Positions 46,336-46,392 of a stretch of DNA of 64,000 nt are shown piece after piece. Under the pieces are notes generated by a model, which was given only the letters and a program-made list of their open reading frames with translations, searched no databases and was not told the DNA's origin. Numbering within the stretch: the stretch's first letter is position 1; every line of letters starts with the position of its first letter. Both the position numbers and the translations under genes were made by a program. The DNA lies in the NCBI RefSeq assembly GCF_055900595.2, contig NZ_CM148325.1; one strand, given 5' to 3'.

Positions 46336-46392
46336 GAGAAAAATAAGATGGAAGCTTTACTCAAAAAAGCATCTCCCCATATCGTACGCTAA
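46327..46392 (+). pseudogene. arpA: Displaced 3' remnant of arpA (last ~22 codons incl. duplicated YIA; ends TAA at 46390-46392)
   Basis: In the arpA frame once IS10 is removed: [21 protein letters not shown]; convergently overlaps the aceK 3' end. Confidence 0.75.

Follow-up and report, generated by a model that had tools for sequence, protein, structure and literature searches.

Ju et al. in 2019 reportedly described terminators of convergent gene pairs that act in both directions and depend on polymerase collision. A preprint likewise describes such collision-driven termination for convergent E. coli pairs, where it needs a stem-loop and multi-polymerase traffic (bioRxiv 10.1101/2022.10.23.513370). 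Rho-dependent termination within the antisense strand of a convergent gene is seen in MG1655, in which DirectRNA-seq with and without bicyclomycin located a Rho termination region at 4220399(+), antisense to arpA (Adams et al. 2021, PMC7815308). The convergent neighbour of arpA is aceK; in the MG1655 annotation aceK occupies 4218596-4220332 and arpA 4220301-4222487, and their 3' ends overlap at 4220301-4220332. The aceK/arpA overlap is thus already known, being part of the reference E. coli annotation.

Here we analyse the same gene pair in a 64,000-nt stretch of DNA (the whole of which is referred to as the window), where arpA is interrupted by a copy of IS10. Our main reading, to which we assign a probability of about 0.75, is that the overlap is a by-product of the arrival of arpA and not a termination device.

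The interrupted arpA gene and its overlap with aceK

The anatomy of the locus, like the junctions and the distribution considered further on, is read directly from the sequences. The features are as follows.

29765-29913, plus strand: STnc430 sRNA match
31969-32165, plus strand: lysine riboswitch, upstream of a 449-aa ORF that is likely lysC
41728-42552, plus strand: iclR, with its start taken from the RefSeq annotation of an identical locus (905-1729); tblastn identity 99%
42560-46381: arpA (espL4) islet, 2483 bp in its native form, here enlarged by 1338 bp (IS10 and one copy of the duplication)
42868-45045, plus strand: IS10-truncated arpA ORF, 725 aa (710 native residues and 15 from IS10, LMNPLMIFIKIIKLR)
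44989-44997: left copy of the target-site duplication, TACATCGCG, 9 bp, direct
44998-46326, plus strand: IS10/ISVsa5, 1329 bp, identified by its terminal sequences and length
45043-45112, minus strand: RNA-OUT antisense RNA of IS10 (Rfam RF00240, 97.3 bits, E = 5e-19)
45105-46313: IS10 transposase, 402 aa (IS4 family model NF033591, E = 1.5e-120)
46327-46335: right copy of the target-site duplication, TACATCGCG, 9 bp, direct and perfect
46336-46392, plus strand: orphaned 3' remnant of arpA, 18 codons and TAA; its translation, as part of the reconstructed gene, is identical to Z0117EC0005
46361-46392: native aceK/arpA overlap, 32 nt, sequence TCAAAAAAGCATCTCCCCATATCGTACGCTAA
46361-48097, minus strand: aceK, intact, 578 aa, ending RYGEMLF* with TGA at 46361-46363
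53668-58679, minus strand: rRNA operon (16S, tRNA, 23S, 5S; StyR-44 match)

In the list of open reading frames the iclR region appears as 41689-42552, from an upstream ATG.

Like other members of IS10/ISVsa5 (IS4 family), the element within arpA is about 1.33 kb long, ends in imperfect inverted repeats, is flanked by a 9-bp duplication and carries a transposase of the IS4 type together with RNA-OUT. Its outside end (CTGATGAATCCCCTAATGA, the canonical sequence) is directed toward the body of arpA and its inside end (CTGAGAGATCCCCTCATAA) toward aceK, and it is the one copy of IS10 in the window. The insertion site lies 25 nt beyond the aceK stop (26-34 nt with the duplicated target). The target TACATCGCG is a poor match to the IS10 hotspot consensus, NGCTNAGCN. 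This insertion is private to one strain: a search of 5426 complete E. coli genomes found its junction in none of them, and exact look-up returned no record of the chimeric 725-aa ArpA.

When IS10 and one copy of the duplication are removed (42868-44997 joined to 46336-46392), a single 728-codon frame with one terminal stop is restored; this stop is the TAA at 46390-46392 of the original prediction, and the reconstructed protein is 100% identical to WP_032304278 of the Z0117EC0005 locus. The effect of IS10 on ArpA is that the last 18 residues are exchanged for 15 encoded by the element. The separation of arpA and aceK by IS10, also foreseen, is confirmed, as the arpA ORF now stops at 45045, inside the element and 1315 nt from the aceK stop, and the overlap is absent in the window today.

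Native ArpA, for which RefSeq uses the name EspL4 (espL4) and for which there is no model in NCBIfam, carries a Pfam Toxin_15 domain (ShET2 N-terminal, PF07906; E = 4e-95) at residues 130-379, followed by Ank_2 (E = 1e-8) at residues 479-548; Toxin_15 followed by ankyrin repeats is the arrangement of the ShET2/EspL family (ArpA/EspL4). Conservation in distant homologues does not extend to the last 30 or more residues, among them those that the overlap encodes. The allele present in the window is rare, with 8 genomes 100% identical to it. No link between arpA and H-NS was found in the literature.

The predicted overlap of 32 nt with the aceK stop at 46361-46363 is borne out both by the reconstruction and by genomes in which the locus is uninterrupted. 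A 373-nt reconstructed junction used as a query against the 5426 complete E. coli genomes matched 5425, about 4089 of which cover both the arpA and the aceK sides, while some 1300 match on the aceK side only. Given a junction fixed in about 4089 of the 5425 matching complete genomes, chance is not the right yardstick for this overlap. Z0117EC0005 is 100% identical across the uninterrupted junction (arpA 2045-4231, aceK 4200-5936, overlap 32 nt), and the same 32-nt overlap is present in DH1 and FDAARGOS_1288. An earlier native stop codon of arpA, with which no overlap would exist, was sought and not found: the alleles retrieved, whether full-length or internally deleted (524, 576 aa), end in SPH(T/I)VR at the native stop, which is used even by an allele with just 86% identity. 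Only a 545-aa frameshifted allele departs from this pattern; it misses the TAA and continues for about 30 more codons antisense to aceK; the overlap can consequently be lengthened by a single indel.

Other forms of arpA are also present among the genomes. The gene is frameshifted in ES5, split in CFSAN027343 and disrupted in B strains, the common alleles of 524-545 aa have lost the ankyrin region by internal deletion, and coverage of the islet reaches at least 80% in only 2003 of 4107 arpA-positive genomes. The aceA-aceK spacer is variable too. In the window (48098-48410) it contains three REP-type repeats (Rfam naRNA4: 48125-48196, 48217-48294 and 48315-48385), and its length is 313 nt in the window and in Z0117EC0005, 280 nt in CFSAN027343, 223 nt in N96, 215 nt in LF82, 183 nt in ES5, 182 nt in K-12, 87 nt in HS-02 and 48 nt in FDAARGOS_1288.

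Probable origin of the overlap at the islet junction

In alignments, the left junction of the arpA islet is located seven bases past the iclR stop (between TGACTTTTTC and TGGCGGG, window 42560), and on the right homology to arpA-less E. coli and to E. albertii returns at TCG.ACGCTAAA, at about window position 46382; BLAST matches of arpA-less genomes begin at query position 220, which corresponds to window position 46381. The GC content of the islet is 0.32-0.41, compared with 0.52-0.59 in the flanks, i.e. 15-20 points lower. Deviant composition, sharp junctions and absence from sister species at an otherwise syntenic site, all observed here, are together the marks of a horizontally acquired islet, although neither a mobility gene nor a direct repeat belonging to it was found.

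The position of the right junction bears directly on the overlap. Positions 46361-46381 are islet DNA and provide the last six codons and the TGA of aceK, while 46382-46392 are ancestral aceK DNA and provide the last three or so codons and the TAA of arpA. The hexanucleotide GCTAAA, which holds this TAA, is conserved in the aligned arpA-less sequences. The overlap of 32 nt results from each gene taking its stop codon from across the islet junction.

What the locus looks like in the absence of arpA is seen in the arpA-less E. coli strains LF82 and N96, in which iclR and aceK are convergent and separated by a spacer of 16 nt, and aceK encodes 574 aa ending in SVRFV*. Both the junction and the aceK ending of these strains recur in E. 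albertii, and in this set as a whole iclR lies 15-16 nt from aceK. A convergent iclR stands beside aceK in 74 of 80 other Enterobacterales species, and no relative of arpA was found at the aceK locus in any of the 80. The aceK tail after RFSVR ranges across species from none to more than 20 extra residues and shows no conservation. Of the 74 species, 16 have an aceK that overlaps iclR; the overlap measures 4 nt in 13 of them and 47 nt in the other 3.

A different junction is present in HS-02, an arpA-less E. coli (2528-2574), where an aceK of 588 aa shares its last 47 nt with iclR; the overlap has the same length as in the three non-Escherichia species, and the end of aceK matches the query with an identity of only about 91%. 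This junction could be the result of an independent deletion or of an imported segment.

Clermont et al. reportedly found in 2013 that arpA is missing from phylogroups B2 and F. Such an absence is consistent with the approximately 1300 genomes that match on the aceK side only.

Taken together, these comparisons suggest the following course of events. aceK and iclR would have been tail-to-tail neighbours ancestrally in Enterobacterales, and an AT-rich, single-gene arpA islet of 2.5 kb would have been inserted between them in most E. coli lineages, its right edge falling inside the last codons of aceK. As a consequence aceK would have lost its ancestral SVRFV* ending and come to read six codons and a TGA in islet DNA, giving SVRYGEMLF*, while arpA would read about three codons past the islet to a pre-existing TAA on the antisense strand of aceK (TTT AGC = GCT AAA). 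The exchange of the aceK tail was presumably tolerated because, throughout the order, the residues after RFSVR are under no constraint. That the last codons of arpA were acquired at the junction is suggested by the junction alignment, which places the boundary only to within a few bases. The C-terminus of ArpA in a donor is not reconstructable, since the alignments of distant homologues stop before it: a word-indexed search for a donor or orthologue outside E. coli gave E. coli alleles only, and an exhaustive HMMER search with ArpA gave only distant ShET2/ankyrin proteins, with alignments ending at about residues 600-696.

The insertion of a single foreign islet is the most parsimonious reading of the junctions, and it is from them that we infer the direction of the event. 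The opposite direction, in which arpA was ancestral to Escherichia, the arpA-less junction arose by deletion and then spread by recombination, and the YGEMLF tail is the older one, seems improbable to us. It gains some credit from the different junction of HS-02, an indication that independent loss of arpA does occur, and from the decay of arpA in several lineages; yet it has to accommodate a junction and an aceK ending common to E. albertii and arpA-less E. coli, the lack of arpA in 80 of 80 other species and a GC content of the islet 15-20 points under that of its flanks.

As for the consequences of the islet insertion, the aceK-iclR overlaps in 16 of 74 species and in HS-02 indicate that tight or overlapping convergent ends are recurrent at this locus and look neutral; the neutrality of the aceK/arpA overlap we likewise infer.

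Transcript ends of aceK and arpA and the effect of IS10

Two sites on the minus strand are relevant to the termination of aceK transcripts.

44936-44976, minus strand: equivalent of the MG1655 Rho region (4220399 = window 44956), approximate; mapped by 114/120 identity to MG1655
47729-47762, minus strand: intrinsic terminator of the AceK-int sRNA (MG1655 b4830), a sequence match with 1 mismatch

In MG1655 the Rho region has a Rho score of 3.0 (p = 2e-8; PMC7815308 supplementary file 2). The reads upstream and downstream of it numbered 104 and 59 in untreated cells and 122 and 208 with bicyclomycin, readthrough beyond aceK thus being raised threefold under Rho inhibition (PMC7815308). The listed position is at +67 relative to the aceK stop; it is approximate and denotes a region, not a precise site, as it comes from a single MG1655 data set in which reads were few and windows spanned 800 nt. 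On the strand antisense to aceK, the tables of the same study list neither Term-seq 3' ends nor Rho regions (PMC7815308). Within aceK, the AceK-int terminator has a Term-seq 3' end at 4218963 and an intrinsic terminator score of 5.9 (PMC7815308); this internal terminator would account for aceK being the least expressed gene of its operon. The copy in the window differs by one stem change, C to T, which keeps the pairing as a G-U wobble.

The transcriptome of BL21(DE3) describes arpA as 'not expressed at all' and reports premature termination in aceK (PMC5435950), a statement that is weak evidence for K-12, as arpA is disrupted in BL21(DE3). We found no direct data in the literature on transcription of the arpA strand in K-12. 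The Rho region and the AceK-int terminator, both of MG1655, and the expression statement are taken from the literature, not from the strain analysed here. Genomic SELEX has also placed a peak of RpoS holoenzyme at MG1655 4220334 (intensity 5.4, class D, inside gene; PMC5493296), which corresponds to about window position 46361, at the aceK stop and the 3' end of arpA; the peak is of low resolution and falls in AT-rich DNA.

At the junction itself, a pattern scan gave no terminator-like site, and the total count of such sites equalled the shuffle expectation. A search for inverted repeats of at least 7 nt, in a range of 40 nt about the junction, yielded nothing but a trivial palindrome of 9 nt, and the RNA downstream of the stops folds no better than shuffled sequences (z = +1.49 for aceK, -0.49 for arpA and +1.50 for aceK with IS10). 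Past the TGA the aceK RNA is unstructured and untranslated, with a C:G ratio of about 1.1-1.4 in the first 125 nt and no strong rut signature.

These data point to aceK transcripts that are few and are ended by Rho in the antisense strand of arpA, to which arpA adds little or no opposing traffic in laboratory conditions. Most aceBAK transcripts would stop at the AceK-int intrinsic terminator within aceK; those that reach the end of the gene would be untranslated after the TGA, and Rho would end them some 70 nt into the strand antisense to arpA. arpA itself, often a pseudogene, is probably poorly transcribed.

Any arpA transcripts might nevertheless be stopped by independent terminators embedded in aceK. 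The pattern scan gave two plus-strand hairpins resembling intrinsic terminators there, at 46758-46775 and at 46881-46896 (the latter consisting of TCGCCGAGATCGGTGA followed by TTTTTT), 370-500 nt past the arpA stop. We consider this role for them improbable, taking into account that the numbers of sites are those expected from shuffled sequences (4 vs 2.6 +/- 1.6; 5 vs 3.6 +/- 1.8) and that 3' ends antisense to aceK are missing from the Term-seq tables (PMC7815308).

According to the original prediction there was no room for independent terminators and the two genes probably terminate by convergent transcription. The premise does not follow, since an opposing coding sequence can hold terminators. 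The more specific proposal, that in the absence of intergenic space head-on collision of RNA polymerases terminates both aceK and arpA, and that IS10 disrupts this, may appeal to the convergent E. coli pairs for which such termination is described (bioRxiv 10.1101/2022.10.23.513370), and to the absence of a canonical intrinsic terminator near the junction. It is very unlikely here, as the required stem-loop is absent, there being neither an inverted repeat nor a stable fold (z = +1.49 and -0.49); the single transcriptome that we located, of a BL21 strain in which arpA is disrupted, detected no transcription of arpA; the published tables list neither 3' ends on the arpA strand nor Rho regions opposite aceK (PMC7815308); aceK traffic is very low owing to AceK-int; and readthrough past aceK rises threefold under Rho inhibition, in a region 67 nt past its stop (PMC7815308).

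We likewise see hardly any case for the overlap as a selected, excludon-type coupling of an effector-like gene to acetate metabolism, in which arpA would be repressed by readthrough from aceK, or aceK by transcription of arpA. In its favour, every arpA-positive genome sampled has the same overlap geometry, and the 59 reads downstream of aceK in untreated cells (vs 104 upstream) imply some antisense RNA over the arpA 3' end. Against it, this uniformity is the consequence of one ancestral junction, loss, frameshift or splitting of arpA has happened repeatedly, neither the tail of aceK nor its distance from the convergent gene is held constant between species, and we found no experimental link in the literature. 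Only if this slim chance were realised would Rho-limited aceBAK readthrough be an excludon-like brake on arpA, or arpA act on aceK, with IS10 having uncoupled the two genes here and made the aceK 3'UTR antisense to the transposase; the level of AceK or the activity of IS10 would then be tied to growth on acetate.

Returning to Rho-dependent termination of few aceK transcripts, the claim that IS10 changes what is transcribed opposite the aceK 3' end has to be restated. The segment 46361-46392 is unchanged and the aceK coding sequence is untouched; what is altered is the aceK 3'UTR from +35 onwards and the source of any plus-strand transcription into aceK. The 3'UTR now consists of 34 nt of native sequence followed, from +35, by the inside end of IS10, antisense to the 3' end of the transposase gene. 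IS10 is located between the aceK stop and the Rho zone, which is now 1338 bp further from the stop. In place of this zone the inside end of IS10 gives the 3'UTR an unstructured stretch, rich in C and poor in G (17 C against 7 G in nt 26-75), and Rho probably still terminates aceK transcripts soon after their entry into the element. On the opposite strand, an arpA transcript would need to cross the whole of IS10 to reach aceK. Transcription into aceK driven by the IS10 promoter pOUT was considered and rejected: RNA-OUT is on the minus strand and pOUT is directed into the body of arpA.

Implications and comparison with known systems

The junction is also the target of a widely used typing assay, the Clermont quadruplex PCR.

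46372-46391, plus strand: ArpA1.r primer site (Clermont quadruplex), 1 mismatch, inside the overlap
46752-46771, minus strand: AceK.f primer site (Clermont quadruplex), 1 mismatch

The 400-bp 'arpA' amplicon is nearly all aceK and is unaffected by IS10, and the target of ArpA1.r is the 32-nt overlap, about half of which is ancestral aceK DNA. In this PCR the window would therefore still type as arpA-positive, as would any genome whose arpA is interrupted upstream of the primer site.

That the overlap is a scar of the islet junction is probable, a straightforward inference from sequence comparison and not a surprising one; a search of the literature gave no paper that discusses how the overlap arose. 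The biological importance of the case is small, the overlap being in the reference annotation and the IS10 insertion private to one strain. Its interest is as a clean example of an islet insertion creating a convergent overlap in which stop codons are borrowed across the junction. Work on the glyoxylate shunt with this strain will have to reckon with a foreign aceK 3'UTR.

Compared with known systems, the closest likeness is to aceK (b4016) and arpA (b4017) of MG1655, with the same genes, the same stop codons and the same 32-nt overlap at about 96% identity, although here the overlap is only reconstructable, with IS10 inserted 25 nt from the aceK stop. The IS10 copy shares with other IS10/ISVsa5 insertions the length of 1329 bp, the 9-bp duplication, the 402-aa transposase and RNA-OUT, and differs from them in that its target gene, arpA, is clipped only by its last 18 codons. 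In the aceK/iclR overlaps of other Enterobacterales the same unconstrained aceK tail enters a convergent neighbour, but the partner is iclR, not arpA. The locus has in common with collision-dependent bidirectional terminators (Ju et al. 2019; Wang et al. 2022) a convergent pair without an intergenic region, and lacks both their stem-loop element and any sign of high transcription from both sides. It resembles the cases of Rho-dependent termination antisense into a convergent gene (PMC7815308), with its bicyclomycin-sensitive region at +67, unstructured and untranslated RNA, and no hairpin with a U-tract, although the C-over-G bias downstream of aceK is weak and the region is known from MG1655.
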